Source of the DNA: Pseudogymnoascus verrucosus
Lineage: Eukaryota
NCBI GenBank assembly: GCA_001662655.1
Contig: KV460226.1
Reading direction: 5' to 3' (one strand)
DNA length: 64,000 nucleotides
This document shows, piece by piece, positions 3,902 through 63,488 of this stretch. The notes under the pieces are model-generated. The model was not told where the DNA came from. It saw only the letters and a list, made by a program, of their open reading frames with translations, and ran no database searches. Made by a program: the position numbers and the translations under genes. Position 1 is the stretch's first letter. Every line of letters starts with the position of its first letter.

Positions 3902-6533
3902 CAGTGATCCCCACGGATACCTGAGTATCCGGGGTATCCGGATACTTGTATGCGGATACTTGTATCCTTGAGAATTCGACGAGTATCCGGATACTATGAG
4001 TATCCACGGATACATATCCGGATACCTGCCAAGAATAGCCAAGAATAGCCAAGAATAGAAAATTCATCGTTACGCTTACCGTCACCGTCGATAGGAAGAG
4101 TTGAGAGTTGCTTTACTGTGACTTTGTTACTGTAGACAAAATGAGCGACTCGCCTTTGTCAGATGCTCCCACTAATATTGAAGCCCCTATGGGCTATCAA
4201 GAATTAAATCTCCCGCCCTTAAATACCCCTATTCTACCGCTGTCTACACTAAGAACTCTAGTCTACTTACAGCCGCCACTACAGCATAGTTTGCCTATTA
4301 CTAAAACATCACTCTTCTCTACAAGGCTATACAGCCGTTTACTACTTGAAACGGCACCTTCAACTATACAGTATGAATGCCTTTAGCTAGGCTGCAGCTA
4401 CAAGCCGCCACCCTAACTTGCAACCTAGAACTCAACTAGCAACTTATGGTTGCATTATAAGAGAAAGCACCCTGCTTTAGAGTAGCTACACAATAGCAAG
4501 AACAGCAATATCGGTATATCTAGCGCTTTAAGCAGCAATTCATCATCCTTTTTCGAGCCTCGCTAGCAAGTATAGCCTACACTTAAGCTAGCACTCCACT
4601 AAGCAAAATATAGAGAATTGTTAATATAATTTATTATATCAAATAACCTGTCTTTAAGTATTGTAGAGAGCTACACGTACCGTTAACTAGTACACTTCCT
4701 AAGCCTAACTACACTTAGTATATCTACTACAACTATTAGCCGTGAGCTGCTCCGCTAATTCTCATATTACCGAGGGCAGTTAATTGTAGAGCTTAATTCT
4801 CATATTAAGAGTAGAGGACGAATATCAATTATAATAGACGCCTAGTTAGCTCGTAACTATACTTAGTTTGCAGCAGTTACTAGTCATTAGATTAATGATA
4901 AATGGCAGTAACGGTTAGCTTTACTTAATGTAATACATCTTAAAGAGCCTATTTATAGCAGTGAATATCTTATAGAGGAGTTACAAGCTGTTATAGACGG
5001 AATGGGCATTACAAGAGCTATCTTTACTTACACTTAGGACAATGCCTTAGTTAATGATGTAATGCTCTCTAAGTTTGAGAAACTAGCTAAAGCCTATCTA
5101 ATTTCATCTCAACAACTATGGCCCTTTACTGTTAAGGAAGGCGACGTACGCTATATCGCCTATATTATCAATCTTGTAGTTTAAGCTACTCTTAAAGCCT
5201 TAAAAGCTGACCTATTAGCAGAGATTAATGATTATTAATGTGAGCTAGGCGCAGCTCGGATTCCGTGTATAGTTGAGAGTAATACAGAGATTATGATAAC
5301 TCTAGCAAAGCTACAGAGGCATATATATGTATTCTAGAATCGAAGGCAATGGAACGACGCTCTATAAAGGCAAGCACTTACAGCTAGTCTTAAGCCTCGA
5401 CAGCTAACGCTTAACATGCTAATTCGATGGAATTCTACATACTATATGCTTATTACTACAAAGTACTTACGAGATCCTATAACTACTATATGTGCTACAT
5501 AGACTTTTAATCTAAGTATGAGAGAGATTGCTCTTACTTTAGAAGATTAGACAATTATTTAGAGTCTTAAGGATTTGTTTAAGATCTTTTTAAGCCTATC
5601 TTAAAAGATGTAAGCAAGCGCCTACCTAACTCTAAACTACGTTATTCTAAAATATCTTAAGATGATTAAGAGACTTAAAATGACAATTTAGGTAGTTAGT
5701 AACTAGACGACAATTAGCCTAGCTTGTATAGCTGCGTTGCTTAAACTTAACAAATACTATACTTTAACAATAAGCTAGCGTTATAGTCACTTAGCTATAG
5801 CTATAGTTTGTAATCTATAGATGAATCTTGCTGTATTTTAGAGGCTATAGCTAACTAGCATTAAGAATGCTAAAAGGCATTAAGTATTAGCTTAATTTAG
5901 GGCTATATACAACTAGTATAACAGCCGTGAGTATTAGCTTACTAATGAGAGAATTAAGCAACAGATTCAATTAGAAGTTGAGGAGCAACTAGAGCTAGAC
6001 TCCAATGATGATTTATATGTCACAACTACAACCTCTCATTAAGAGCTAGAATGGAAAAGATGGAACAACGAGGGCTGTCCTAGACCACAGACTAATATAC
6101 TTAAATATTAGGCTGTAAAGCAGTACTAATATCTAGTTATTGCAAAGATTGCAAGAGATCATCTTGCAATCCCTATAACATTAGCTACATCAGAACGGGT
6201 ATTTAGCAATGGTAGTGATATTATTACTAAGAAACGGAACAGACTGTTGCCATTAACAGTTAGATATCTACTTTGCTTACGGGATTAGGGCCATTTACTA
6301 GAGGCAGATGATAGTGATGCAGACGATGAGCGGGAGGAATAGGAGTTATTGTATATATACACTATAGCTATGAGCTTCAATTCTATTTTTATATACTCTA
6401 TTATAGCCTTAAGCCTCATGTATCCTGATACATATCTGGATATCCGGATACATATCCATGGATTTCTCACGGATACTGTATCCTATCCGTAGAGTTCACG
6501 GATAGTATCCGGATACGTATCCGGGGAACACTG
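3902..6533 (+). mobile_element. hAT DNA transposon, full length (2632 bp), RIP-inactivated
   Basis: TIRs CAGTGATCCCC / GGGGAACACTG; 8-bp TSD TCCTCGAC at 3894-3901 and 6534-6541; many subterminal GGATAC/GTATCC repeats; internal transposase remnant. Confidence 0.95.
4141..6343 (+). pseudogene. hAT transposase pseudogene (BED-like finger, DDE core, C-terminal dimerisation domain)
   Basis: Motifs readable through many stops: STSNLWLHYKRKH, IDA*L, T*DNA, RYIAYIINLVV, RWNSTYYML, IAKIARDHLAIP..SERVFS..RNRL. Stops fall where W/Q are expected (TGG>TAG, CAA>TAA). Confidence 0.9.
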
Positions 6534-12737: not shown

Positions 12738-15148
12738 ATGCCGATTAGAAGTGGCCAAAGGCCGAGCTTGACGCAGAGTCTTGATCGTGAGGTGGGTTTT
12801 GCGAGAAAAGTTGTGAGGAAATATTCTAATCGCTCCAGATATACCAAGTTGTTCGCAAAATCGCCGACGAGCAGGCTGAGCGTGAGGATGGTGGGAAGAG
12901 ACTTTCTACCTCGATAGTATACGACAGCATTAAGAATTCGAATTCAAGCCTGAAGCGCAGACCGAAGAAGTTGCTCGAGGACTCGATCGATCGTGTTCTA
13001 CTGGTTATAAAAGAGGAGCAGGATGATAGCGAGGCTTCACTAGATGGGGATTTTGATGGGATCGCCGATGCTGCACCTGTAATGAAGGAGCACAATGTCA
13101 TGAATAGGAGCATTACGAAGTTGTGGGCACAACCAAAGGCATCCCTCACACCAAACACACAGTCAGATGGCGCCTTAACGACAGGACAAACCACACCCTC
13201 AACCCCAACCCAGGCAATCGATGGAGATGCGACAACACCTGGCAAGGCCGACAGACACACAAATGGAGAGCCACACAAGAAGCGCCGTAAGGCAGAGAGA
13301 GAACCAAAGAAGGAAGTCGACCGCACTCCACCCGCAGACATCTCTCTCGCCAACCTCGGCGGTGTCGACGCCGTTATCGAAGAACTGAATGAACTCGTCG
13401 CCATGCCTATGCTCTACCCCGAAACCTACCTCCGCACCGGCATCCAACCACCCCGCGGTGTTCTCCTCCACGGCCCACCCGGATGCGGCAAGACCATGAT
13501 CGCCAACGCTTTCGCATCCGAAATAGGCGTCTCCTTCATCCCCATCTCGGCGCCGTCGCTCGTAGCCGGTATGTCCGGCGAGTCCGAGAAGAAGATCCGC
13601 GAGATCTTCGACGAGGCGAAGAAGATGGCGCCATGTCTCGTCTTTATCGATGAGATCGACGTTATCATGGGGAAGCGTGAGAGCGCGCAGCGTGAGATGG
13701 AGAAGCGTATCGTTGCCCAGATGTTGACGTGTATGGACGACATGGCACTGGAGAAGACGGACGGAAAGCCCGTCATCATCATCGCTGCCACCAACCGACC
13801 CGACAGCATCGACCCTGCGCTCCGCCGTGCAGGACGCTTCAACAAGGAAATCAACCTCGGCGTACCGAACGAGGCGTCGCGCGAGAAGATCCTGCGCGCG
13901 CTGACGCAAAAGCTCATGTTGCCCGATGAATTCGACTTCCTCAAGCTGGCCAAGATGACCCCCGGTTTCGTCGGCGCGGATCTCAACGACGTCGTCTCAG
14001 TCGCCGGCACAGAAGCGATGAAGCGCATGATGACCGCCCTCAAGCAGCGCGTCGTAGACACCCCCCTAACCCCCCCAACGACACTGTCAACAGACGTCAT
14101 GGAAATCGACAGTGTCCTCACCACCGCCTCTAACTCCGCCATCACCACCACCACCACATCCACCGACCTAACCGCTCACCCTACCCCTCTCTCCGCCCCC
14201 CTCCGCCTCCTCCGCAGCCTCGTGAAACACGCCGGCGAAACCCCCCCCGACGGGGACTTCTCAATAACCTACTCCGACTTCCTCGCCGCGATCCCCAAAG
14301 TCCAGCCCTCCGCTCGGCGCGAAGGGTTCGCCACAATCCCCGACACGACATGGGCGCACATCGGAGCCCTCCACACCGTGCGCGAGCAGCTGACTATGGC
14401 GATCATCGAGCCGATCCGCCGCCCTGCCGCGTTCGCGCGAGTGGGTATCACGGCACCTACTGGTGTCTTGCTCTGGGGTCCCCCGGGGTGCGGTAAGACG
14501 CTCCTTGCGAAGGCGGTGGCGAACGAGTCGAAGGCGAATTTCATCTCTATCAAGGGTCCCGAGCTGCTTAACAAGTACGTCGGCGAGTCCGAGCGCGCAG
14601 TCCGTCAGGTCTTCGAGCGCGCTCGCTCTTCCGTGCCTTGTATCCTTTTCTTCGACGAACTCGACGCACTGGTGCCGAAGCGCGAGGACTCCTTGTCCGA
14701 AGCAAGCAGCAAAGTCGTCAACACCCTCCTCACCGAACTCGACGGCCTCAGCAGCCGCGCAGGCATCTACGTCGTCGCCGCCACCAACCGCCCCGACATG
14801 ATCGACCCCGCGATGCTACGCCCCGGCCGCCTCGGAACAAGCGTCTTCATCGACCTCCCCAACGCGGACGAGCGCGTCGAGATCCTGCGCGCGCTATATG
14901 AGAAGGCGCTGCCGGGGGCGGTGATGGAGGGGTTGGAGGAGGTGGCGAGGGATAAGAGGGCGGAGGGTTATTCAGGGGCGGATTTGGGGAATTTACATCA
15001 GGCTGCTGCGGTGGCGGCTTTGAGGAGGGATGGGGGGAGTGAGGAGGTGAGGATTGAGAGGGTGGATTGGGAGGTTGCGCTTGGGTCGGTGAAGCCGAGT
15101 GTTAAGGATGCGGGGAAGTATCGGAGGTTGAAGGAGAGGGGGATGTAA
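12738..15148 (+). CDS. RIX7: Type II AAA-ATPase Rix7/NVL (60S biogenesis)
   Basis: Two AAA modules (GPPGCGKT twice, Walker B IDEID and FDELD); [16 protein letters not shown]; short first exon from 12738 followed by an intron ending at 12838. Confidence 0.92.
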
Positions 15149-27627: not shown

Positions 27628-28010
27628 GGAAGCTACGACCAAAGTTTGCTTAATAATCGTTCTTTCCGATGTCTAATTTTGACGTTCTAGAGAAGCCGCG
27701 ACTGAAGCGCTTGATAATCATACCTTCCATATTTATCCCTTGAAGATCCTGAGGAAGGTGCGATTGAAGCTTGCTTGATAATCATTCCTTCCATATATAA
27801 ATATTTCAAAAGTCTCGGGGAAGTTGCGACTGAGGTTTGCTTGATAATCATACCTTCCCTATCTATAACTCAAACCCACCGAGGACGCTGCGACCCAGCA
27901 TTGCTTGATAATCATTCCTTCCATATATATCACTGTGAAAAACTCAAGGGAAACTGCGACTGATACTTGCTTGGTAATCGTTCCTTCCATATCTGTAACT
28001 TCAAGTTCCT
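27628..28010 (+). repeat. Array 1 of a ~64-bp repeat family (6 units)
   Basis: Core GGAAGYTGCGACTGA..YTTGCTTGATAATCATWCCTTCC; the TTGATAATC anchor or its variant is at 27650, 27711, 27775, 27841, 27905 and 27971. Confidence 0.92.
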
Positions 28011-42806: not shown

Positions 42807-43691
42807 CAGTGTTGCCCGAGTACCGCTCCGAGTACTACTCGGAGGAACCTCGAGTACCGGCCTCAAAATTGAAGCTCGAGTACCGGTATTCGAGTACTGG
42901 TACTCGAATACCCGAGTACTACTCGCATATAAATAGAAATTGAAATATTACTATATATATACTATTCTAACTCATTATTTACATTATTACTGCTATCCTC
43001 ATCGTTACCTTATAATATAATACCCTAACTTCTTAAGTAGAGTAGATATTAAAGCGTAGATGGTAATATTTAGTTTCAGAACGTAAGTAAGTAAGGTAAG
43101 GCTCCATTTATTTACTCTTTTTACACTTAATTACCCCTGTTTCAGTGTTCCCCAAAATAGTATTAGTATTTGTGGTTTTCGAATAGTATTCGGCGACGAG
43201 TAGTATTCGGGCAAAATTTGGGGTATTCGGCGAGTATTTGCCAAAGACTCGAATACTATTCGAGTTCTTGGCGTGCACGGCCTAGAACGCAAAGCAACGA
43301 ATATTAGCAGGTAAAGTAGTATTAGTAATCAGTTATTATAAAATGTGCTAACACGTGACTGCTGCTGCAGTCACGTGTTAGTTCCACTAACTTTTAAAGA
43401 CTCTTTCTATAGCCTATTATTACTATTCGGCGAGTGCTATTCGACGAGTACTATAACTTCGTATGAGTATTCGCCGAATATTATCAGGTTATGAGTATTC
43501 GGGAAAACCCCGAATACTATTCGAATACTATTTGGTGAACACTGCCCTGTTTGCTAAGGGCTTGGCAGTACTCGTAGTACTCGGAGTAGTACTCGGGGAC
43601 TCACCGAGTACTCAAAAATATCACCCGACTACAGTAGTACTCGGGTACTCGGCGAGTAGTACTCACGGCGAGTACTACTCGGGCAACACTG
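42807..43691 (-). mobile_element. Non-autonomous hAT element (outer; 475 bp once the nested insert and one TSD copy are removed)
   Basis: TIR CAGTGTTGCCCGAGTA / TACTCGGGCAACACTG; TSD GTTATTAT at 42799-42806 and 43692-43699; dense subterminal CGAGTAC/GTACTCG repeats; transposase C-terminal remnant on the minus strand. Confidence 0.95.
43143..43544. mobile_element. Nested hAT-type MITE (402 bp)
   Basis: TIR CAGTGTTCCCCAAAATAGTATT / AATACTATTTGGTGAACACTG; TSD CCCTGTTT at 43135-43142 and 43545-43552; subterminal CGAATAC/GTATTCG repeats. Confidence 0.95.
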
Positions 43692-43867: not shown

Positions 43868-45946
43868 CTAAACCCTCCTATCCTGCACCCTCTCTGTCTC
43901 ACTCTGAAAGGTTTTCTCATCATAATCCGGCTCCCCCACCGGCTCCTCCGGCCTCTCGGCCCTCTTATTCAACTTCCCTCCCTTCAAGAAGTACACAAAC
44001 TGCTGCAGCCCATACTTGGCAAACAACCTGCTCTTAACCCCAAACACGACATCCAGCTCCTCAAGCGTCTTCCCCTTGGTTTCAGGGACAAGCATTAGCA
44101 CCCCGAAGAACCCGATCACGTTCCACGCTGCGTACCAGCAGAATGCCCCCGTCGGTCCGAAGGCTTCGAGGAGCGAGGGCCAGGTGATGGAGAGGACGAA
44201 GTTGAAGAACCAGGTTGTAGCTGTGGCAAGGGACATGCCCTGCGAGCGGATGTACAGAGGGTACGCCTCAGCGGAGTAGGTGAAGGGCACCGGGCCCTCG
44301 CCAGGGGAGTAGACCATTCCGAAGAGGTAAATCCCGAGGGCGATACACGCGATTCTCGCCACCGACGTCTCAGGGATGAGGAACGAGAAACCCGTGAAGA
44401 ACAGCGCCAGCGCCATTAATGGGAAAGTAGTGAGAAGCAGATTGCGGCGACCAAAGGTATCGATGGTGTAGAAAGCGGGGAGAGCGAATAAGAAATTTAT
44501 AGCGCCGAAACCCATTGAGGCGCCCAGGGCAGAGAGTTCAGAGAGGTTGGCCTCTAGGAAGATCTCCGAAGAGTAGTAGGCTATAATATTGACACCGCAG
44601 AATTGCTGCATGAACATGACCAACTCAGACGCCTGGAGGGCGCGGCGGTTTCGCGGGACGCCGATGAGTTCCTTGGCTTTGTTGCCCATGTTGATGGTCT
44701 CGAGCTCGGCGCTGACGAGGTATTGAATGTAGAACAGGTCGCGCGCAGCTTGTACTTTGTTGAAGCGGAGTTGCTGGATTGCTGTCCAGGCTTGGTGGTG
44801 CCGGCCCTGGCTGATGTACCAGCGCGGGGACTCAGGACACATGAAGACGAAGCAGCATACTACGACGGCAGGGATCATAGCGGAGGCCATCATGAGACGC
44901 CAGTTCATCCCCGAGACGCCGGACGGGTCTTTGACTTCGTAGAACATCAGATCAGCCGCGTACCCGACGAAGATACCAAACGCCGTGAACATCTGCCAGC
45001 ACATGATGAGCGCGCCACGAATGGGTGGCGGCGCCGTCTCAGCAGCGTAGATGGGCACGGTGGCCGATTTGGGACCGATGCCGAAGCCGAGGAAGAAGCG
45101 TGCGATGAACATGTGCCACCAGGTGTTGGCAAAGGCTTGCCAGAAGCAGGCGGTGGCGGAGAAGAAGCAGGTTAGGAAGATGGTGCCGCGGCGGCCGAAC
45201 CAGTTGTTGAAGGGGATGGTGAGCCAGCAGCCGATGAAGGCGCAGCAGAGATAGGGGCCGGAGTTGAGGAGGCCGACAAGCCAGGTGGAGCGGGGGTCCT
45301 TCTCGCCGATGCCGAAGTGCTGTTTGTAGAAGATTTGGGCGCCGTTGACAACGGTTTCGTCTGGGGGGAGTTAGTCGCGTGATCTCTTAAAAAGTATCAT
45401 AATTAAAAATGAAAAAAACTTACCCATTCCCTGTACAGCTGCACACAGCGAACAAGGCAGAATCACGAGATACAGCTTCTTAGGCTGCCTCCACTTGTGC
45501 TCCAGCTCATCGGAAAACACCTTGCGCTCGTCCTCAGTTAGTCCCTCGACTTCGCGGAACATATTCGGGTCCTTAGCGACCATAGCCCCGAGTCTGAAGG
45601 CGCGAATATCCTCCGCCTCGCCCAGCGCAAACTCGCGACAGTACTGCTCGCCCATGTCGCCGACCTTCTCGACAGGGAAATTGCCGAGCGGATTCGCAAG
45701 TTTGAGATTTAGCCTGCGGCGCGTGCGCTCCCTCTCGTCGGTGATGCCGGCTAGTCTCTCATCTTCATCCTCTTCTTGATCGGGCTTGCTAACTACGGAG
45801 TCGCGGCGAGGGCTGGACGGGTCGGCGGGGGAGGAGCTGGAGGAGGGCTCGCCGGTGTTGATGCGTGTGGGGACGGCGACCTCATTGCTGCCGATTGGTA
45901 TGGTGGTGAGTTTGTTGTTGGGGTCGTCCATGTTGAGGTCCGCCAT
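43868..45946 (-). CDS. MFS sugar-porter family transporter (polyol/myo-inositol-like), 2 exons
   Basis: AAVQGM-DETVVNGA, FGRRG, PIYAAETAPPPIRG, PESPRW, MQQFCGVNIIAYY, FGRRNLLL, VPETKGKTLEE. Intron about 45361-45424. Confidence 0.9.
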
Positions 45947-48108
45947 GGTTGGCATGCGGATTGGGGATTTGTTTGTTGAAAGATGGAATTGATAGGAATG
46001 AGGGGAACCACAGTATATATTTATGTATATGTGTTTAAGTAGATTTATCAAAGGAAGGAAATATATGATTAGAGAAAGAAAGAGGTAAAACTGCTTAGCG
46101 GTGTGGGGTTCCCACTAAGTTATATGTTGACAATCCGATCTCCAGTTTTTCTATGGATAGTCGAGGGGGAGTCTCTTACGCCTTCTGGTACCTTTGACAT
46201 CATCACGAGGGAATCCTTGATGGGGCGAGATGGAGGTGGTGATGTGGGGAAGTAGTAGAGTGAGTATTGGTAGTCATTGGTAGTGACTTTATGACTTCTG
46301 TAGATGGTAGCACTACTATAGTACTATAGTAGTGATTGCCTTGTAGTCATCTAGGAACGTGATTGGAAGTGCGGGAGGGTATGGGAGGGAAAGGGAGGGA
46401 GGGAGGGATGTGGGGGGAGATAAAGGCGGGAGGGGATGATAGGAATAGCCTGTAACAAGGCATCCCGAGGAGCAATTGGGGAAATAATTGGAGGCAGAGA
46501 AGGAAGGGGAAAAGAGTGGGCATCACACTCTTTTCTCTCTGCGGACTCTAGAATCCCTAGGCGGAGGTGGGTAGGTACATAACATAAAGTGAGAGAATAG
46601 CAGCAAATCGATGTACTACCACAGTTATATTCAGGTCGTATACTTGTATACTGCTCATGACCCGCACGCTTTCCCTTGCTCGTGCAATCGAATGACATTC
46701 GGCAGCGCCAAGAAGCGCGCGTGAAAGTTGAGCAACAAGAAATTAGGAAGATAAACGCACCAAAGCAGGACTTTGCCATGCGAGGAAGACTAAGCGATCC
46801 CAGCGATCCAGCTCACCAAGTGGAGACCCCGCATCCCGACCGGTACTCACCCCGGCTATCCACGGTGGCGTCCAGACGGGGTTTAGCGTACCGTCATGAA
46901 TGAACGAGAGTGGTCCGTTTTGGGGATTGTGGGGGAGTTGTGAGGCGTGTATTGATCAATTGGGATTAGTGGGAACAAAGCGGCGGGATTATGGGAAACA
47001 AGACGCGAGAGTGGATGCTTCATTTGGAAATGGAGGGAGAGAAGAGGATGTAAGGTGTGGTGTGTGGCTTGTTGGTGGTGACGTCATTATATTTGATTTT
47101 AGTGGTTGCGAGGGTGAGGATGAGAGATGGGGGAGCGATGGGGGAGGGATGAGGGAGGGGTGGGAGGAGGTCGGGGGTAAGAAATAGAGCTGATTGAGGC
47201 AAATCGGTGTGGCTTAACGGAGGGGTGATGTCATGGGAATGGGTATAAAATTGTAAAAAGTGAGGATTGGGCCTTGACTTGACTGGCTTGGCGATGCAGG
47301 ATACAAGACTCGACTACTATAACACGGGTCGGTAGTGAGGCCGAGTGACCACGTAGTAGTGTGTAAGAGACGACAGTGTACAAATGAAGTGTTATGTGAG
47401 AGACGAGGAGTGTACAATGGGATGCACTATATGTACGAGAAAGTGTACAGGAAAGAGTATAAATTAAAGATTGTGAGAGTCGAGTCTAGCATAGACTGCA
47501 TTGATAGTCGAGATAGTCGAGATACTATATTGCAGGTTATAGTGTGATTATTGGCTCCTCTACTCACAAACACCAACAGTCAAGTCTAGCCGTACAAGCG
47601 TCGTTAGTCGAGTCGAGTCCAACTGCCGGAGACACTAGGGCAAAACACTATAACGACTACACTCGACAACACTCTATAAAGACTCCATTCCACTCTCATC
47701 ACCAACAGCCTCATGAATACTCCATCCATCTCTTCAAAAACCTCAACCAATCGCCACCCCTACCCCTTCTCATCGCTCAATCCATCCCCCTTTCCCCTCT
47801 CACTTCTTCTCTCTCCCCCAATCTTCCAACCCCCCCACTACCCCCACCATCTCCAACAAACAGCGGATCTTTTCCTTTGGTGGGGTTGTGGGGTAGATGT
47901 GGTGATCGATCTCCCCACTTTCAGTATTTCGACGTCGCAAGTAGAGAATGAGTAAATGAGCAAACAGGTGCTTTAGAGACTTTTTATTTCGTATATGGAT
48001 CACTTCGGTGCGCGAATTGTTGTGAATATTAGTAAAAATGGGGGTGACAATTATAATACTTGTTGCGATAAAATGGAGAATAAATGTCGTATCACCACCA
48101 CCTAAAAT

Positions 48109-53782: not shown

Positions 53783-54211
53783 TCACCATTCCCCGCCGAT
53801 GGAGTAGCGAAACACCCTCGTGAAAACTTTCCCTCCTGTTTGTCCCCATAATTTTGCAATACCCTAAAATCGTCAGCAGATTCAATTCAAACACAGAGAA
53901 TTGATTCTTACTGCGTTAGTGGCAACTCCTGTAAACATAACATTCAAAAATAGGAACTCAAAAGTATTGTTTCCTAACGGCCTCTCGCTGTAATCCAACT
54001 CTCGATTTACAGGCCGATAATCAGGCACCCTCCGATAATTGCTAGGCCAATTGTGAGGACTTTCGGCTGCCGAATGCTGATTTTGACGCGGGATCGGTGG
54101 TTGAGTTGTTGTTGTGCCATTCTCGGATCCCGTGAGATGGATCTCGTAGTCAGTTAGAATATGTTGTATTTCAGCGGTCGTCGCTCTCGCTATCGTAGTT
54201 GTATTCGACAT
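53783..54211 (-). CDS. Small hypothetical protein (2 exons), cluster member
   Basis: ATG 54211; intron after VATNA (GTAAGA...GCTGAC...TTAG); last exon GIAKLWGQTGGKVFTRVFRYSIGGEW*. Confidence 0.75.
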
Positions 54212-54340: not shown

Positions 54341-54352
54341 CCCCACATTCCG
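54341..54352 (-). promoter_or_regulatory. Cluster motif CGGAATGTGGGG (copy 1, divergent promoter)
   Basis: CCCCACATTCCG on the + strand between the ATGs at 54211 (-) and 54479 (+). Confidence 0.7.
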
Positions 54353-54478
54353 ATGCGTCCTCCCGACAGCAGGTTGGCCACCCCGATCGTAATTTTCTGA
54401 TATAATGTCTAAATACACAAGCAAGCAGTATTGTTTATCCGGAAAGACCTACCGAAACACTTTCTAGAAATCACGAGA

Positions 54479-56092
54479 ATGGACCCCATCCAGCGCCTTC
54501 AGGAGTCTCTTATTGACCGCCGTACTGAGAACGTTCGCTACCGTCAAAACCAACTACAAAGCTTGCATGCTACTCTTTGCAATAGCGCAAATTTAATATG
54601 CAATTCGATTGCAGAAGATGCACAAGTTGAAAGCTCAAATGCCGAGGCTGAGACAGAGTATTATCTTTCCATGAATGCCGTGAAGCATTTCTACGAGGGC
54701 CTGGGCTTCGAAAAATCAATTAATGACGAGTACTTGATTGCAACAGGGATTGATAACCCTCAGAGACAGGTAGGATATGGTCTAGTAATTATTCGCCCTA
54801 CTACGCATACAAGGTTATATTCGATTGTATGCCCATTGGCGGCGGCTTTAGCGGCGGGGAATGTTGTCGTCATAGAGGTTCGTTAGTCCTGATGCTTGAA
54901 GACGTGTGCCTAATTTATGTAGCTTCCTGATACCCTTCTCAAAGTTGATGCTATCCTGAAGGAGGTCTTACCAGAAGCGTTAGATCCCGACACCTTCGTT
55001 ATTTCCGCAAAATTGATTGAGGACCCGTCAATTCTTTTATCAAGTCTACTCGTCGACCAAACGTCTGCAACAACAACAACAACCATCGCTAACTCGCTTT
55101 CCTCTCAAAACAAGCACCGAACAATTGCTATTGTAGACCGTACAGCAGATATTGAAGCTGCAGCAAAGGCAATTGTAACAGCACGCTTCAAATTTCAAGG
55201 CGCTTCTCCGTACAGCCCAGACCTGGTCATTGTTAATGAGTATGTCAAGGATGAGTTCTTTGCAACATGTTCAAAATATGCGAGCCAAATGTTTGTTTCT
55301 GGCGTGAAAGCCAAGAGGTCGAGAAGCAATGCTGAAGCCGAGACAAAAAAGTTCTTTGAAGACGCTATTGCCAAAGAGCAATTGTCAACATTTCGTTTTG
55401 CGGATTGTATCCTAGCGCATGTCACGGATAGGTTGGTTTTCTCGTCGAGATTTTTGGAATTTGAAGATTAACATGACTCAAGCACCTGCCTAGTGACCGA
55501 AATAAAAATCCACGGCTGCTACCTGCCCATAGTTACAAGCACCAGCATGGTTGATGCCATTATCAAAGAGATGAGGTATATCTACACCACTATTAACTCC
55601 AACTTTAAAGCTCTCAACTTACTGGTAATTAGGTCAAATCTACTCGCAGCTTATATCTTTGCACAACCTCCGGAAGCTAAATTTCTTGCCCAACACCTCA
55701 AGGCACATCTCACTGTCATCAATCAAATACCCGTGAATCTCCTGGTTGGGCCAGCTGCGCCATGTGGGATCGCTATGGAGTACAAGTACCGATATAGCCC
55801 CGAAATGTTTTCAATCCAGCGTCCACAATACATTCATGCTCTACCCACCGAGCTGTCGGTAGTTGATGAACATCTTGTTCCTGGCCGGAACCCAAATGGA
55901 ACCACGAAAGTGAAGCAGTTACGATCATTAGCGACGCGGAAACTGCCTGGGACGGGACAATCGCAGGGGCATGATATTGGATTCTTTGAACAGGGAATAT
56001 TGTTAGGGTTGGGTGTTGTCTTGAGCATTGTGGTGCCGGCGGCAGGGTGGGGGCTATGGGCAGTGGGGAAGAAAGTTAGGAGTTCGATGTGA
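54479..56092 (+). CDS. ALDH3/Hfd1-like fold protein lacking the catalytic residues, with C-terminal TM anchor (multi-exon)
   Basis: GLVIIRP...PLAAALAAGNVVVI; AIVDRTADIEAAAKAIVTARF..GASPYSPDLVIV; LAAYIF; hydrophobic tail GILLGLGVVLSIVVPAAGWGLW. Canonical introns. Confidence 0.8.
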
Positions 56093-56392
56093 TTATGTAG
56101 GAGTACTGTTTTAATAATAAAATCATCTACAACATATGTGCAGTTGCATACGGATGTGTTATCTGAGGGCGCGCAACCAATCTATCTTATTCTATAAAGA
56201 CTTCGGGTTTTATTTATTTTATAATATCGTACGAAACAGCGGGATTCAAACCATGTCACTATGTATGATGTCCGACTCCTATGTTCCAGCTTCATGATTT
56301 GCATTAAAACGATGATGAATATGATAGCTTAAACTTAGAAATGCCCCTAAAACCTGTACATATCAACTCGAATTAACCCAATGGATCCTTCA

Positions 56393-57335
56393 TCAAACAG
56401 CAGCTACCACCCTACCAGTTGAGGGCCACTTCCCAAGCGTATATTGGCTGTTGCACATATTTTGTAGTTCCCAGTCCTCGGCTCCCAACTCAGCTACTGT
56501 TCCTCTATCCTCAACTGAGCCACATAACCCAGCAACAAACATGGCTGACATAAAGTGATCATCAGTGGCGTGAGCATCCCTATATTTGGGAACTTTCATC
56601 AACATCGTCATAGCCCGCCGGAGTTCAGGACCTGATGTCTTTGTAATAGCGTCTTCAAACTCTTGTCTAAAATCAAGTAATAGACTACTGGGTGGAGAAG
56701 GCATGGCGAAGTTATCTGTGCGGTTTCTTATAAGTAAAATATAGCTCCCCGCCCGGATAAACTAATAACGTACCACGGAAGCGCAACATCTGGAACCATG
56801 AATTGCGATATAGATTGTGCACAGCACCACCAGAGCCAACAAACAGAACTTTCTCCTTGCGCATGGGGCGCAAAGCGGAGCCGACCTTCACATGAAAGTG
56901 TGGATCATAACGAGCGTTCATGGATATAATAGTTGTTGGCGGACAGCCCCCTGGAAACATCCGGATGAGAACCAAATATGTATCGTGTATCCAGTCGAAT
57001 TTCTCGTTCAGCTTTGCTTTGAAGCCCGACTGTTTAAGCAGATCTAGACATCTGTGCGACATCGGGATATCGGGGTTGAGGGCGTAAGGGACATATTTAT
57101 CGTGATGGACGTAAGCGACTGGTGATTTCTCCGGCTTGGGATTCGCCGCAATCTCAATTTCATCGCCAATTGTTGCCCAGTGAGCACCCATAATGACGAC
57201 GTGCTCAATGCCATTTGCGAGTGCTTCATCTCCGCATTTCTTCCAGTAGTCAGCAGAGGCAGACTCCTCGCCAAGCATCATGGTTGAACCATGGGAGAAG
57301 AAATGGACAGGTGTCAATTTGTTTGTAGATGCCAT
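56393..57335 (-). CDS. LigB/DODA-family (class III) extradiol ring-cleavage dioxygenase; intron 56716-56773
   Basis: FFSHGSTM, MGAHW, DWIHD, GSGGAVHNL, AHATDDHF: the conserved His ligand pattern of LigB/4,5-DOPA dioxygenases. Confidence 0.9.
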
Positions 57336-57468
57336 ATTTTAAAACTGAAAGACCGATAACGCATACGAAGACGCAACATAATCAAAGAAGAGGTTGAAAG
57401 TGACAGCTTGTAAGCTGAAGTCATAGACAATGGGCAGATCAATAGAACGGCTTCCCAACATTCTTGCA

Positions 57469-57566
57469 GCCCACATTCCGAGACTCGTTTTATTGAGTGA
57501 AATATAATGTGGCGAGACATTTATGTGGGGCCGACCATCCGTTTAGCCACATTCCCCCACATTCCG
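57469..57566 (-). promoter_or_regulatory. Cluster motif copies 2 and 3 in the dioxygenase promoter
   Basis: GCCCACATTCCG at 57469-57480 and CCCCACATTCCG at 57555-57566, plus a partial GCCACATTCC at 57546. Confidence 0.7.
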
Positions 57567-57850
57567 TACTTACCCCCAAAGTATGGGGGTCTATTGTCGG
57601 AATTCTTGTGGCTGCTCATCTCTCCTACATCGTTTTATGGGGTAGTATCACTGAGCATACTTCTATAATTAGTACATGGTATCGGATAGAGAGCTAAATG
57701 CCGTAAAATCAAGTTTTCGTGCTTGTAAAAGCCGCCAATTTTATGCTGCTGAAAGTGACAGGATTTGTACGAGCGCTGTCGAAACATACTTCGTGTCTCG
57801 TTTCTAGTTGTGGAATGAGAAGTGGCATATTATTTATTACCATATCTATA

Positions 57851-60800
57851 TCACTTAACTATTACACCTCTCGCCGCAGCCCCCAGCTCCCTTATTAACT
57901 GGCTTAAATTCTCCACTAGTGGTGGAGGCGGCGCTTCGTCTCCACCAACCACGCCCCTCAAGATCTTAACAATGGCGTTCATGACACTCCCCGGCTCACG
58001 CAACATGGCGATTTCCTCTGACGTACACCCATCAGCCTCAGAGACCAAAAAACACGGTATCCCACGTTGTAGCGCAATGAATGATTTCGTAAATGAACTC
58101 TCTTCCACATCTAACCGGACAAGCTCTTCCCCAGAATTATCACCAGCCTCGTCTACGCTATTTACACCTCCAACGAGTGGTAGCTCAGACTCATTTTGGT
58201 CATGCTGGGCGTTCGGCCTTAGACTCAAGACGCCAAACGCCCAGAATGTGAGCGCAGAGTGGTATACCGCGACGGCGAAGAAATCTCGCAATCCTCCTTG
58301 CAAACCCCTTCTATTATTCAGTAACTTCGCATAGCGGACGATCTGCCCGGCGTGAAACACAGCGGTTCGGGCTTCACGGCTTGCAGCCCATTGTTGGAGA
58401 GAGGGATAGACGCGTCGGGCTTCCTCTTCGCCTTCCCTGCCAGCGAAAACTTGTAGGCTATCGAAGGATACGTATAGATTGGTGATGAGGAGCTCCGTTA
58501 ACAGTTTGGATTGGAGTGCTATGCTTGATTGATTTTTTCGCCCTGGCCCCGGCTCGGGCAATGAGGCGGAGAAAGGCTCTAATAGCTCGCGTAGTTCTTG
58601 GTGGCGGTGTCCAAGCACTAAAAAGCTCGAGGAGAGGCGTATTGATGGATATGCCTTTGCAACCGAGTTTAGTTGGCGGTATTCTAGGATTAGGCCCCAG
58701 ATTCCGTAAGCGATGATAGAATGAGATAGGGCAGAGTCGATGGCTGCCTTGACAGAGGGGCTGTTTAAAGGAGATATGTCATGGAGGCATTGTTGTAAGG
58801 ATGGGATGCGCTCGTTGGAGTTGATGGAAGAAGTTTGAGTGAGGTAGGTTGATTTCCACTCGGCAGCTGTGCGGGCGAGGAAGAGGTTGCGGGATTCCGG
58901 TAAGGGGAGCGAGAGCTCGGCGTAAGAGATTATGGTGGGATTCATGAGCGAGATTGAGGTTTGGGCATCACGGATAAAGAGGTGAAAGACGAGTCTGTCA
59001 GATATTAGCAAATTTAGTTTGGAGCGTAATGTAGGCTGGGATAGCTACCGCTTAAAGGATTCCTGCTGCGCCCAACTCCTCCACTTATTCTCTAAAGCCT
59101 CACCCTCATCACCCTCCAAGGGAATAATAGCCACGTAGTTCGATCTCAAAAATCGACCTGCTCGTCGACACATCGTTATGACCGTCAGTGCATGACTTTC
59201 TGCCAATTCCATCTTTCGTTTATTACCGCTCCAAAGCCCAACATCTAGATTCAGGGCCAGGGCTTGCAACAGGCCAAGGTCACGCGTCATGGAGTTATTC
59301 TCCTCGCAAACTACCGGAAGTGATCTCCTCACAGCTTCATGGATTGCAAATCCTAGCTTGCGAATAGTGAAAGATGTAGAAAGAGCGGCACCCGCTGAAA
59401 CAATGCTACCTAATAGCTCTGCATTCTGTCCCCCAATCTTTAACGTCGGTGAGTGGATCCAAGTATCTGACTGCATGATATGGTATGCGAGGAAGCAATG
59501 CAGAAGGTTATCCAGTAACTCTACAGACGGGAAGCTAGACATGACTTTTGTGAATGATGACCTCAAACATGTACTTAGCACCATAGATATGATCTTGTCG
59601 CGACCCGCGGCATTGAGACTCTCAGTATTGACGTGCATAGATTCCGCGAAATGTGCTGCAGGACTGCTCATCTCGGAAGGATGTAGAGTAAAATTTTCTT
59701 GCTCAACTAATCCTGTGTCTGCGCGAACGGGCGTCCAGCACCAGAGTGATTTGCGAAAAGCCTCAATGCCTAGCGCAAGACGCTCTGCGACCTTTTCTGT
59801 AGGTGCGTTTGATTGTGGTGTGGGCATTTCATATTGCAAGGATGATATGTCGATGACCTCTTTGACATAGGCTGTATCGTAGACGGCCTTTCCTTGGTAA
59901 AAGTCCATGAGGGTGTAATCTTGATCGTTGAGTTCGAGATTAGATTCCAAGCCGAAAGATAAGACATCTCTGAGGGCCATTGACTGGGCGTCGGTTCCCT
60001 GAGAGACGGGTTGTTGGCCATTGAATGGCTCTAACGTGGTCGGCATCATGACCTCTCGTAAGAAATCGGCGAATTCGCTCTCGTCACAGTCTATCAATGC
60101 GTTTGATGATAGGGAGGTTTCCATTGGCAATGACATAGACATGTCTAGGAAATATATCAGAAAGGTAACACTTTATCTTCAGACGAGGAAGCTTACCATC
60201 TCTATTGTGGCTCTGGGCTGGATCTATAACATGTTCACCTCCCCTCGAAGCCAATTCACCAAGAACTAGATTGCTGCCCGAAGTATAATCCATGATATCA
60301 TGCTCCTGAGGCTGTCTTGGTTCATTCGCAGACTGAGTAGCAAATGTATCCTCAGACGAAGGATTACCAATATTTTGCTGTATGGTATCGTGAGAGCTGC
60401 TAGATAGTTGCCACGATCCATTAACTGTCGCGTCTGTCTCGTTATACTCACAAGTGACACCCTTAGCTTCACATCTTTGGCAAGGTTTCTCTTCTTTACA
60501 TTTCAGCTTTGCAGCTGCGCAAGCCTTGCATGCATGCGACACACGTCCTGGGCGAGACGGGCATGTTTTGCGGTGCTGGCGGTTGTCGGTGTGAGCTTGT
60601 GCATGTCTCTTTAATAAATCACTACGAGAAGATTAGATACGTGCACTGATTAGAGAAGAATGACATATTTATATTTAATACATACGGCCTGTTGAAAGTT
60701 TTGAAACAAGCCTCACATCGATATGGTTTCTCGGAGGTATCTAAACGTTGTTGTGGTTAGCACCAAATCTTTTCTGGAGCGGAGGCTCTCGAGAGTCACA

Positions 60801-60952
60801 TTACGGGAACGGAAGTGGCGTGCAAGATGATCTATCCTGGCATATGTCCGTTGGCAGACATTGCACTTAAACGGACCGGGCTGGACTTGATTCTGGCCTC
60901 GCTGATTACTGTCGGGATCGGGATCCGGATCTGTTACGTCGGTCGAGTTCAT
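57851..60952 (-). CDS. Transcription factor with two C2H2 fingers, a Zn(II)2Cys6 cluster and a fungal-specific TF domain (5 exons)
   Basis: FKCNVCQRTYARIDHLARHFRS-HTSEKPYRCEACFKTFNRP-DLLKRHAQAH; ACKACAAAKLKCKEEKPCQRCEAKGVTC; WIHSPT...WRSWAQQESFKR-LVFHLFIRD. Confidence 0.9.
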
Positions 60953-61032
60953 GGCTGCGAAGGGATTTTGATGTGAGGACCGGGAAGTTGTGGAGGAGAT
61001 GCGGAATATAAGGGAATTTAGAGGGTACTTGT

Positions 61033-61044
61033 CGGAATGTGGGG
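61033..61044 (+). promoter_or_regulatory. Cluster motif CGGAATGTGGGG (copy 4, TF/ALDH divergent promoter)
   Basis: Exact 12-mer about 80 bp upstream of the TF ATG. Confidence 0.7.
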
Positions 61045-61626: not shown

Positions 61627-63208
61627 ATGAATCTCTCCACTAGCCATCTCACCGGCCCTGTGAACGGCGAACTTGGGAAACTATACACCATCCCTGCTCA
61701 AATCAATGGCAAAGAAGTCATCCTATCCCCAGCCTTCGACGTCCACTCTCCCATTAACGGGTCTCTAATTCACCGTTGTTCCTCCGCCTCCGTCGCCGAC
61801 GCCCTCTCCGCCGTCACCGCTGCCCAGGCAGCCTTTCCGGAATGGCGCGACCTCCCCCCAGCTGCAAAACGCGACATCTTTCTTAATACTGCTGAAATAT
61901 TCAAGAGTAGAAACGAGGAATTGTTGAGATATATGATCGATGAAACTGGCGCAGGCGAGTTCTGGTCCGACTTTAACATCACACTTGCAGCGGATATCCT
62001 GAAAGATATCGCAGGCAGAATCTCAAGTCTGAAAGGCGATGCGCCGATAACAGGGAATCCGGGAACAAGCGCAATCGTGTATAAGGAGCCATACGGTGTC
62101 ATTCTAGGCATCGCTCCATGGTACTCCTCTCTCCATCTCTTCCTCTTTCCTCTCCTCTCTGGACAAAATGCAGATATATACTTACCCACCTTTCCTCTCC
62201 CGAATATCCTCCACATCACGACTAACATATCCTAGGAACGCACCCTACATCCTTGGCGTCCGCTCTATTGCCTATGCCTTGGCCGCAGGTAACACTGCCA
62301 TTCTCAAGGCCTCCGAGTTCTCCCCGCGCTGCGCGTGGGCCATTGCCGATTGCTTTCGTCTCGGCGGCCTCCCCGCCGGCGTTCTAAACACCATTGCGCA
62401 CTTTACCTCCTCCGCAGCTGCCATCACAGAAGCCCTCATCGCCGATTCGCGTGTCCAGAAAATCAACTTCACGGGCTCTACGGTCGTCGGGCGCATCATC
62501 GCCGAGACCGCAGGTCGGCACCTAAAACCCGTCTTGCTGGAGCTGGGCGGCAAAGCGCCTGTGATTGTATGTGAGGATGCGGATCTGGAAGTTGCCGCGA
62601 CAGAGTGTGCGAAGGGCGCATTTATGCATTGTGGACAGGTGTGCATGAGCACAGAAAAGATTTTGGTGCATAAAGATGTCGCGGCGGCGTTTGAGGAGAG
62701 ATACAGAGAGAAGGTGGTCGATATGTTTACCAAGCAGGGAGTGTTGATAAATAGGGCGGCTGTGGACAGGAATATGCGACTCGTGAGGGATGCGGTCGGG
62801 AAGGGGGCAGAGGTGCTGACTGGGACCGTGGAACAAGATCATCAGCTACCGGGGACGCATATGTCACCAATAGTTGTGAAGGGAGTGACGGAGGCGATGG
62901 AATTGTATAATACAGAGTCGTTTGGCCCGACGGTGAGTATTATTGAGGTAGAAACCGAGGAGGAAGCGGTACGGATCGCGAATGATACCCCATATGGCCT
63001 CACATCAGCAGTGTTCACGGAGGACCTCAGGCGCGGACTGAGGCTTGCAAAGTGCATTGAGAGTGGTGCAGTGCATATCAATGGGATGACGCTGCATGAT
63101 GAGACGATGTTGCCACATGGCGGGGTAAAATGCTCAGGTTATGGCAGGTTTGGGAGTGGAGGATTGGAGGAGTGGGTCAGGAGTAAGACGGTTACTTTTA
63201 AGAATTAG
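61627..63208 (+). CDS. Aldehyde dehydrogenase, vanillin/salicylaldehyde dehydrogenase-like; intron 62121-62235
   Basis: EPYGVILGIAPW-NAPYILG, LKASE, NFTGSTVVG, LELGGK (Glu), GQVCMST (Cys), ESFGP, GAVHINGMTLHDE, HGGVK.SGYGRFG. Confidence 0.92.
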
Positions 63209-63234
63209 ATAGGTGGGAAAGGCGAAAGCTTTCA

Positions 63235-63488
63235 GGAAGCTGCGACTGATGCAGCTTGATAATCATACCTTCCGTGTTTATAATTCGAAAATTCTGAGGA
63301 AGCTGCGACTGAGACTTATTTACTAATCAATCCTTCCATATCTATAACTCGAGAGCCTCGAGGAAGGTGCGACTGAGGCTTGCTTGATAATCATACCTTC
63401 CATATTTACAGCTGTAAAGCCTCGAGGAAGCTGCGACCGAGGCTGGCTTGGTAGTAGTTCCTTCCATATCCATAATTTGAAAGTCCCC
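63235..63488 (+). repeat. Array 2 of the ~64-bp repeat family (4 units)
   Basis: GGAAGSTGCGAC at 63235, 63298, 63362 and 63426; same core as the 27628-28010 array. Confidence 0.92.

Follow-up and report, generated by a model that had tools for sequence, protein, structure and literature searches.

A gene cluster and its shared promoter motif

The DNA considered here is a stretch of 64,000 nucleotides from contig KV460226.1 of Pseudogymnoascus verrucosus (GenBank assembly GCA_001662655.1), referred to below as the window. It carries a group of adjacent genes around a LigB-type extradiol ring-cleavage dioxygenase and a zinc-finger regulator, and the intergenic regions of this group share a 12-mer, CGGAATGTGGGG, whose distribution, conservation and possible reader are described below. 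The leftmost gene is a small open reading frame (ORF) of 109 amino acids (53885..54211, minus strand), an ORF call to which no function is assigned and which gave no Pfam family and no usable Protein Atlas match. It is followed by a divergent aldehyde dehydrogenase-like gene, called ALDH-like A (54479..56092, plus strand), which consists of three ORF pieces with unmapped introns; the Pfam Aldedh family is recognised in the middle piece only (27 bits). The dioxygenase gene (56396..57335, minus strand) has two exons and matches Pfam LigB with an E-value of 1.2e-11. The regulator gene (57854..60952, minus strand) has its first zinc finger in an exon at 60952-60805, a Zn2Cys6 exon starting at 60632 and a Fungal_trans domain divided between 59048-60172 and 57854-59044. 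On its far side lies a canonical aldehyde dehydrogenase gene of two exons, ALDH-B (61627..63205, plus strand; Pfam Aldedh E 3e-99). The remainder of the window is occupied by housekeeping genes and one HET gene.

Exact matches to CGGAATGTGGGG were found at three places, namely 54341-54352 (minus), 57555-57566 (minus) and 61033-61044 (plus), and copies with one mismatch at 57469-57480 (CGGAATGTGGGC, minus) and 58695-58706 (CGGAATCTGGGG, minus). Five matches at one mismatch or fewer compare with a mean of 0.44 in shuffled sequence, and none of 100 shuffles of the window reached five; the recurrence is thus far beyond chance. An earlier note on this DNA, made from the letters alone, had listed the three exact copies and the one at 57469, all of which were recovered. 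It had noticed no copies elsewhere, which holds for the core of the motif but passes over the one-mismatch copy within a coding exon of the regulator at 58695; this last copy is probably due to chance, and it disrupts GTGG, the core from which no orthologous site departs. The 9-mer core GGAATGTGG occurs five times in 64 kb, at 54343 (minus), 57471 (minus), 57547 (minus), 57557 (minus) and 61034 (plus), and all five copies lie in three intergenic regions of the cluster. The shorter word AATGTGG has eight copies in the window, six of them in the same three regions, and GTGGGG alone is frequent (55 copies). Apart from a T before and a G after the motif, the flanks of the copies have no similarity to one another, so the motif is not a dispersed repeat.

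The small ORF and ALDH-like A diverge from a promoter of 267 bp, and the copy at 54341..54352 lies halfway between them, some 130 bp from the ATG of the former (54211) and 127 bp from that of the latter (54479). The dioxygenase promoter holds a cluster of sites on the minus strand between 57454 and 57566, composed of AAGAATGTTGGG (57454-57465), the one-mismatch copy already mentioned, GGGAATGTGGCT (57545-57556) and the exact copy that ends at 57566; core-only elements on the plus strand, AATGTGG at 57506 and ATGTGGGG at 57523, bring the number of AATGTGG-like elements to as many as six in about 115 bp. These dioxygenase sites lie 134 and 210-220 bp upstream of the ATG at 57335. The copy at 61033..61044, called site 5, is placed between the regulator and ALDH-B and is upstream of both, at distances of 81 bp from the ATG of the former (60952) and 583 bp from that of the latter (61627). 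The statement of the earlier note that the motif covers all five genes is borne out as far as the three intergenic regions go and is otherwise too strong, because no relative of ALDH-B is present in any of 25 orthologous loci (tblastn, E<=1e-5). ALDH-B adjoins the cluster and is not a conserved member of it.

Conservation of the cluster and of its promoter element

The orthologous loci were collected by a metagenome scan with exon 1 of the dioxygenase as the query, which returned 25 loci at 46-86% identity; their neighbouring genes were identified by local tblastn and, in the long loci, by Pfam. The regulator is found head-to-head with the dioxygenase in L002, L003/4, L005, L009, L010, L018, L019/20 and L025, and elsewhere in the same locus in L011/12, L014 and L024, so that it accompanies the dioxygenase in most loci of sufficient length. 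The sole long locus without the regulator, L006/7, is also without the site. Syntenic relatives of ALDH-like A are present in L001, L003/4, L006 and L024; as this protein is very divergent yet kept beside the dioxygenase, its role may not be the oxidation of aldehydes. Relatives of the small ORF, at 36-39% identity, adjoin the dioxygenase or ALDH-like A in L003/4, L014, L016, L022, L023 and L024. Long loci add a cupin, a fumarylacetoacetase-type (FAAH) hydrolase, an S15/PepX hydrolase and an MFS transporter, together with a BBE/FAD oxidase in L011; such extra genes occur in L003, L011, L014 and L024 and are missing from the cluster inside the window; the gene content varies around a core of regulator and dioxygenase. 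The loci delimit a conserved cluster for extradiol ring cleavage, as yet uncharacterised, in Leotiomycetes and other fungi. The upstream regions of these loci are not alignable, most pairs of promoters sharing less than 5% of their 12-mers, although some loci are kin (L002/3/5 to one another, and L014/16/22/24).

Conservation in orthologous promoters had been set beforehand as the test of the motif, and the motif survived it. An unbiased search for enriched k-mers covered the 500 bp preceding each of 19 dioxygenase orthologues, with 172 kb as background, and its top words were GTGGAG, TGGAGG, ATGTGG, GTGGAGG, TATGTGGA and ATGTGGAG, so that the enrichment returns ATGTGGAGGA. GTGGAGG alone was observed 21 times where 3.4 were expected (p 1e-10). 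Two further enriched words, CAGTCAGG and AAAGTGAC, were considered as a second general element and set aside; they reflect lineage conservation, since they are confined to two groups of related loci. Variants of the core behaved differently from one another. GTGGAG was strongly enriched (19 against 5.6 expected) and GCGGAG was not (6 against 4.7), variants with CT or CC were near onefold, GCGGGG and CCGGGG were mildly enriched (8 against 2.9 and 5 against 1.7), and TTGGRG was not enriched in these promoters (TTGGAG 4 against 6.2; TTGGGG 5 against 4.8).

The coupling of this core to CGG was then evident at one distance. CGG stands exactly 3 bp 5' of GTGGRG in 11 of 33 promoter cores as compared with 9 of 225 background cores (Fisher p 2e-6). 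A spacer of 4 bp was found in 3 of 33 promoter cores against 2 of 225 in the background, and one of 7 bp in 6 of 33 against 3 of 225, mostly from one group of related loci. When spacings of 0-10 bp were scanned over 137 kb of loci excluding the window, the 3-bp spacing (N3) gave 18 matches and the others 1-9 each, and CGG was the leading triplet at the N3 offset. Alignment of 27 non-redundant cores gave A at position -2 in 21 (p 1e-8), T or A at -1, C never at -3, and, downstream, G at +6 in 19 and A at +7 in 20. The conserved element can therefore be written 5'-T-CGG-N-A-W-GTGG-R-GG-A-3', with the T before CGG present in most sites. The sequence ahead of the dioxygenase reaches 330 bp or more in 13 lineages. 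In eight of them (the window, L002, L003, L005, L009, L013, the L014 group and L025), an N3 site is located 140-225 bp from the ATG of this gene, and in two (L018 and L020) there is a site with a spacer of 4 bp (N4).

The frequency of the motif was judged against approximately 163-195 kb of locus DNA. In 195 kb, the generalised pattern occurs 19 times as compared with 0.77±0.94 in 100 dinucleotide shuffles (maximum 4), a contrast that is partly circular because the pattern was refined on the same loci; for that reason the figures fixed a priori, namely 11 of 33 against 9 of 225 and the spacer scan, are the fairer ones. As many as 18 of the 19 matches lie between cluster genes, including the cupin/S15, FAAH/cupin, MFS/ALDH-like and BBE/MFS promoters, and the sole match outside cluster promoters is in a DUF2293 ORF at 16110 of the window. 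Besides the CGG of the motif itself, no second CGG or CCG half-site was seen at any offset from -45 to +60 in at least 4 of 18 sites.

The cluster regulator and the reading of the motif

The regulator has the domain order described for Cmr1 and Pig1, that is, two ADR1-like C2H2 fingers, a Zn2Cys6 cluster and Fungal_trans, and both this order and the recognition helices are as the earlier note had claimed. The helix of finger 1, RIDHLAR, is encoded in exon 1, and that of finger 2, RPDLLKR, is interrupted by an intron, the splice being borne out by the annotated orthologue P0153 (FNRPDLLKRH). Finger 1 scores 22.4 bits with Pfam zf-C2H2 (E 1.6e-4), below the cut-off of 25.2, because its 49-amino-acid exon ends within the finger. 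The zinc cluster, C-X2-C-X6-C-X6-C-X2-C-X6-C, reaches 33.9 bits against a cut-off of 21 and is separated by 20 residues from the last His of the fingers. Fungal_trans (PF04082) is matched by one exon piece at 18.4 bits over profile positions 35-152 and by another at 22.1 bits over 152-226, and full-length orthologues of the regulator carry it too. A hypothetical protein from Pseudogymnoascus sp. VKM F-4519 shares 99% identity with the last exon. The best matches that bear a name are hypothetical proteins annotated as 'C6 and C2H2 transcription factor RegA-like', and a literature search on the label 'RegA' gave nothing useful. The closest public relative, P0151, has Zn_clus and Fungal_trans and no C2H2 in its precomputed Pfam annotation, and P0153 has all three; the small exons for the N-terminal fingers are probably absent from the public gene model of P0151.

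A full-library HMMER search with the zinc-cluster exon returned 448 proteins at E<=1e-3, and among the best 150 of these, 64 have two fingers upstream of the zinc cluster. In all 64, finger 1 reads R-x-[DE]-[HY]-L-x-R and finger 2 has Arg at -1, Asp at +2 and Arg at +6, with mostly Leu or Ile at +3, and the linker to the zinc cluster measures 17-28 residues. An alignment of 41 full-length relatives shows no variation at R39, H42 and R45 of finger 1 or at R67, D69 and R73 of finger 2. As the contact residues do not vary, the finger half of the site should be common to the whole family. The regulators of all the orthologous loci share the same finger contact residues, with R-x-D-H-L-x-R in finger 1, which is why no covariation between GGG or GAG sites and the finger-1 helix was seen among them. 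In L024 (about 14040-14230), finger 2 seems to be without the second His at the usual spacing (DLLKRHTDSGTC) and may be a C2HC variant. The two-finger domain of the orthologue P0003 matches the ADR1 structure (PDB 2ADR) with an E-value of 3e-14. The region after the zinc cluster is unconserved and of low complexity in 18 relatives. An AlphaFold2 model of P0153 (mean pLDDT 67.6) has two ββα fingers, a disordered linker at residues 83-96 and then the zinc cluster; it has no helix for about 100 residues past the cluster and none before residue 230, the segment 129-280 being below a pLDDT of 50. By this prediction, no coiled-coil dimerisation element would follow the zinc cluster.

C2H2 fingers bind DNA antiparallel to the chain; an R-H-R helix reads GGG, the Adr1-like helix RxDLLxR reads NYG and Zn2Cys6 domains read CGG. 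A Leu at +3 of finger 2 suits a preference for GT-GG-RG. With these rules, it appears fairly probable that the motif, a conserved cis-element of a conserved fungal cluster, is bound by the cluster's own Cmr1/Pig1-type regulator, one chain reading both halves of the composite site. Finger 1 (Arg at -1, Asp at 2, His at 3, Arg at 6) would be placed on GRG, Asp2 favouring the following G, and finger 2 (Arg at -1, Asp at 2, Leu at 3, Arg at 6) on GTG, as in the TTGGRG of ADR1. The basic linker of about 20 residues would pass over the A/T-rich 3 bp and the C-terminal Zn2Cys6 would contact the lone 5' CGG, while cores without CGG would represent weaker, finger-only sites. The side on which CGG lies is the one predicted by antiparallel docking of the fingers with a C-terminal zinc cluster, and the observed coupling supports this. 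The missing second half-site and the modelled lack of a helix after the zinc cluster fit the single-chain composite reading, although they are no proof of it. The earlier note had put finger 1 on GGG; its R-H-R helix agrees with that, but the conserved element has GRG and not GGG only.

On the same reading, the LigB dioxygenase gene, the ALDH-like gene and the small ORF would stand under one cis-regulatory element, and the regulator probably feeds back on itself, since a site lies 81 bp upstream of its own ATG and, in most orthologues, within the shared divergent promoter. TCGGAATGTGGGGGA may then be regarded as a candidate operator for the N-terminal part of about 135 amino acids, which comprises fingers, linker and zinc cluster. 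What is said here of the identity of the binder, its stoichiometry or monomer state, the sign of regulation, the inducer, autoregulation and the substrate of the pathway, we infer.

Several observations weigh against single-chain recognition by the regulator. Many core sites have no CGG, and at position -6 of the 27 cores C and G are equally frequent (10 each). In 3 of the 13 lineages (L006, L010 and L011), neither an N3 nor an N4 site was found upstream of the dioxygenase. Of these, L010 has a remnant shifted by 1 bp; L011, whose regulator is the closest to that of the window among the loci, has CGG-N1-GTGGRG twice in this position, and its BBE/MFS promoter contains N3 sites. About 100 bp before the ATG, ATGTGGAGGA stands without CGG in the regulator-only promoters of L011 and L024. 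The spacer is 4 bp in two lineages and also at the regulator's own promoter in two close relatives: when DNA contigs of X2, X5, X15 and X7, about 1-4% divergent, were compared, the differences listed included an extra G after 61033 in X5 and X7, which turns site 5 into CGGGAATGTGGGG. The 3 bp between CGG and core are also constrained where a pure spacer model predicts otherwise, and they are therefore probably contacted or read by shape. The claim of the earlier note that CGG follows after a 3-bp spacer thus stands as regards distance and side, but the spacer is not neutral, and N4 and CGG-less sites exist. The relatedness among some loci (L014/16/22/24; L002/5) weakens the counts, as does the partial circularity of the shuffle comparison, and the fit of GTGGGG and GTGGAG to the catabolite-repressor consensus SYGGRG has to be counted here as well.

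Some of these points would be accommodated if the two fingers of the regulator alone read (A)TGTGGRGGA, CGG being the contact of another Zn2Cys6 protein or mere context and the regulator's own zinc cluster acting elsewhere or separately. No other element is as strongly enriched or as general as the finger core, CGG accompanies it at N3 in just 11 of 33 promoter cores, the regulator-only promoters of L011 and L024 retain it without CGG, and the inserted G at site 5 is tolerated in close relatives. It was reported that deletion of the zinc cluster of Cmr1 abolished melanin, whereas deletion of the fingers reduced it (Tsuji et al. 2000, as related in PMC12426039 and PMC5415576); as the deletions differ in their effect on melanin, the fingers and the zinc cluster of Cmr1 are not equivalent. 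We nevertheless consider recognition by the fingers alone unlikely, for CGG is enriched at a single spacing and on a single side of the core, it follows a T in most sites, and a second half-site, which binding by an unrelated Zn2Cys6 dimer would normally require, is not conserved. A global C2H2 factor on GTGGRG is a still less probable reader, be it an ADR1 orthologue or CreA/Mig1, which would bring a catabolic cluster under carbon catabolite repression. GTGGGG and GTGGAG both fit SYGGRG, the mildly enriched GCGGGG and CCGGGG do so too, and GCGGGG-type boxes lie approximately 10-30 bp from several composite sites (L002, 13330-13345; L003, 14860-14875; L014 and L024, near CGGTATGTGGAG). CreA, however, leaves the A at -2, the CGG at N3 and the downstream GGA unexplained; GCGGAG, CTGGRG, CCGGAG and TTGGRG are not enriched, and the motif tracks the presence of the cluster regulator. 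The GCGGGG-type boxes rather suggest separate CreA sites beside the activator site, and overlap or competition with CreA may occur at the motif itself.

Two other accounts are hardly credible. The consensus of AbaA is CATTCY, and since CCCCACATTCCG contains CATTCC, a composite of an AbaA/TEC1 site (CATTCY opposite GGAATG) with a G-box was considered, by which the cluster would be linked to development. GGAATG alone has 38 copies in the window, however, and the orthologous sites have CGGGAT, CGGGAA, CGGTAT or CGGATT before GTGG, which destroys CATTCY; this reading was rejected. Chance recurrence, or the remnant of a small dispersed repeat, might be suspected in view of the 43 other 12-mers with at least three copies in the window, but these belong to repeats, tandem or dispersed, whose similarity extends beyond the word itself. 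It was rejected in view of the unrelated flanks of the motif copies, the shuffles, none of 100 of which reached the count, and the conservation of the motif among loci whose promoters share less than 5% of their 12-mers.

Recognition of the composite site by the cluster's own regulator can be extended into a more specific and more speculative model. Three zinc modules in series on one chain may read an operator of about 16 bp, the finger half being generic and the position of CGG setting the specificity of paralogues, with the linker of 17-28 residues as the ruler; we put this forward tentatively, as a possibility somewhat short of even. A hint in support of the ruler idea is that six lineages with linkers of 20-23 residues have N3 sites, whereas the two with the longest linkers, L020 (24 residues) and L018 (26 residues), have N4 sites. 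Few lineages are involved, and an N4 site in L003 runs counter to the pattern, as does the G insertion in the close relatives.

Repeated words also occur outside the cluster promoters. Two arrays of one tandem unit of 64-66 bp (GAAGCTGCGAC...TTGATAATCAT) lie at 27692-27992 and 63234-63475; since contigs from related genomes pile up to a depth of 200-360 with many joints at 63.2-63.5 kb, the unit belongs to a dispersed, satellite-like repeat family. In an AT-rich stretch (GC 0.37 at 4-6 kb), two patches (3934-4016 and 6441-6507) together hold eight copies of the palindrome GTATCCGGATAC, a 12-mer, and of words overlapping it; these may be repeated binding sites for a protein or mark the termini of an element. 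The near-palindromic words CGAGTAGTACTCGG and CGAATAGTATTCG recur at 42828-43671, 43180-43523 and 48131, flanking a sugar-transporter gene (43871-45370, minus strand). The stretch 45800-47900 is strongly skewed towards G, the GC skew reaching 0.22, and is rich in TGTGGGG words, which have no relation to the cluster motif.

Relation to known zinc-finger and zinc-cluster regulators

The recognition helices of ADR1 are of the R-H-R and R-D-L-R types, and ADR1 uses paired inverted half-sites. The fingers of P0003 match its structure, and the GTGGRG found here equals TTGGRG except in the first base, with the same G/A wobble. In contrast to the cluster regulator, ADR1 has no Zn2Cys6 domain, and its own site is not enriched in these promoters. 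The site of Adr1 is given as TTGGRG and that of Mig1 as SYGGGG (PMC3897899, Table 2). As to CreA/Mig1, GTGGGG and GTGGAG fall within SYGGRG, but the element described here is longer, with A at -2, CGG at N3 and GGA on the 3' side, and the GT variants alone are strongly enriched.

Gal4-type Zn2Cys6 proteins act on paired CGG half-sites, AlcR being a monomeric exception. The present system resembles them in the CGG triplet at a fixed distance and in the cysteine pattern of the zinc cluster. It differs in that no second CGG or CCG is conserved and that the modelled orthologue has no helix or coiled coil after the cluster; if the proposed reading is right, it would differ also in that the partner half-site is read by the C2H2 fingers of the same chain.

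The closest relatives in architecture are Cmr1 and Pig1, known since 2000 (Tsuji et al., as cited in PMC12426039, PMC10789848 and PMC5415576). In the Alternaria homologues of Cmr1, the fingers are placed at residues 2-24 and 30-52 and the GAL4 motif at 73-116 (PMC10789848). Finger, finger, a linker of about 20 residues, Zn2Cys6 and then a middle homology domain follow one another in Cmr1p/Pig1p as in the regulator of the window. The regulator of the window differs from them in that it stands in a catabolic-type ring-cleavage cluster and not beside melanin polyketide synthase (PKS) and reductase genes; no PKS, reductase or scytalone dehydratase gene was found in the window cluster or in the orthologous loci. 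Judged by sequence, it shares the architecture of Cmr1 without being the melanin orthologue.

Regulators with C2H2 and Zn2Cys6 domains are widespread in ascomycetes, and the class includes Cmr1, Pig1, Amr1 and VdCmr1 from plant and animal pathogens. StMR1 reportedly binds the promoters of melanin genes directly. No defined binding motif for the class was found in the literature searched, and the StMR1 paper or subscription journals may hold one. Eight such regulators are counted in A. nidulans (PMC5415576), and the same review describes the recognition details of the domain combination as ones that 'remain obscure' (Shelest 2017). Against this background, the cluster provides a short, conserved and testable candidate operator, the two halves of which map to the two kinds of domain in the order predicted by the protein. 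If the reading by three zinc modules is true, it would be the first cis-element grammar for this 'dual-specificity' class of C2H2 and zinc-cluster regulators, those of melanin included.

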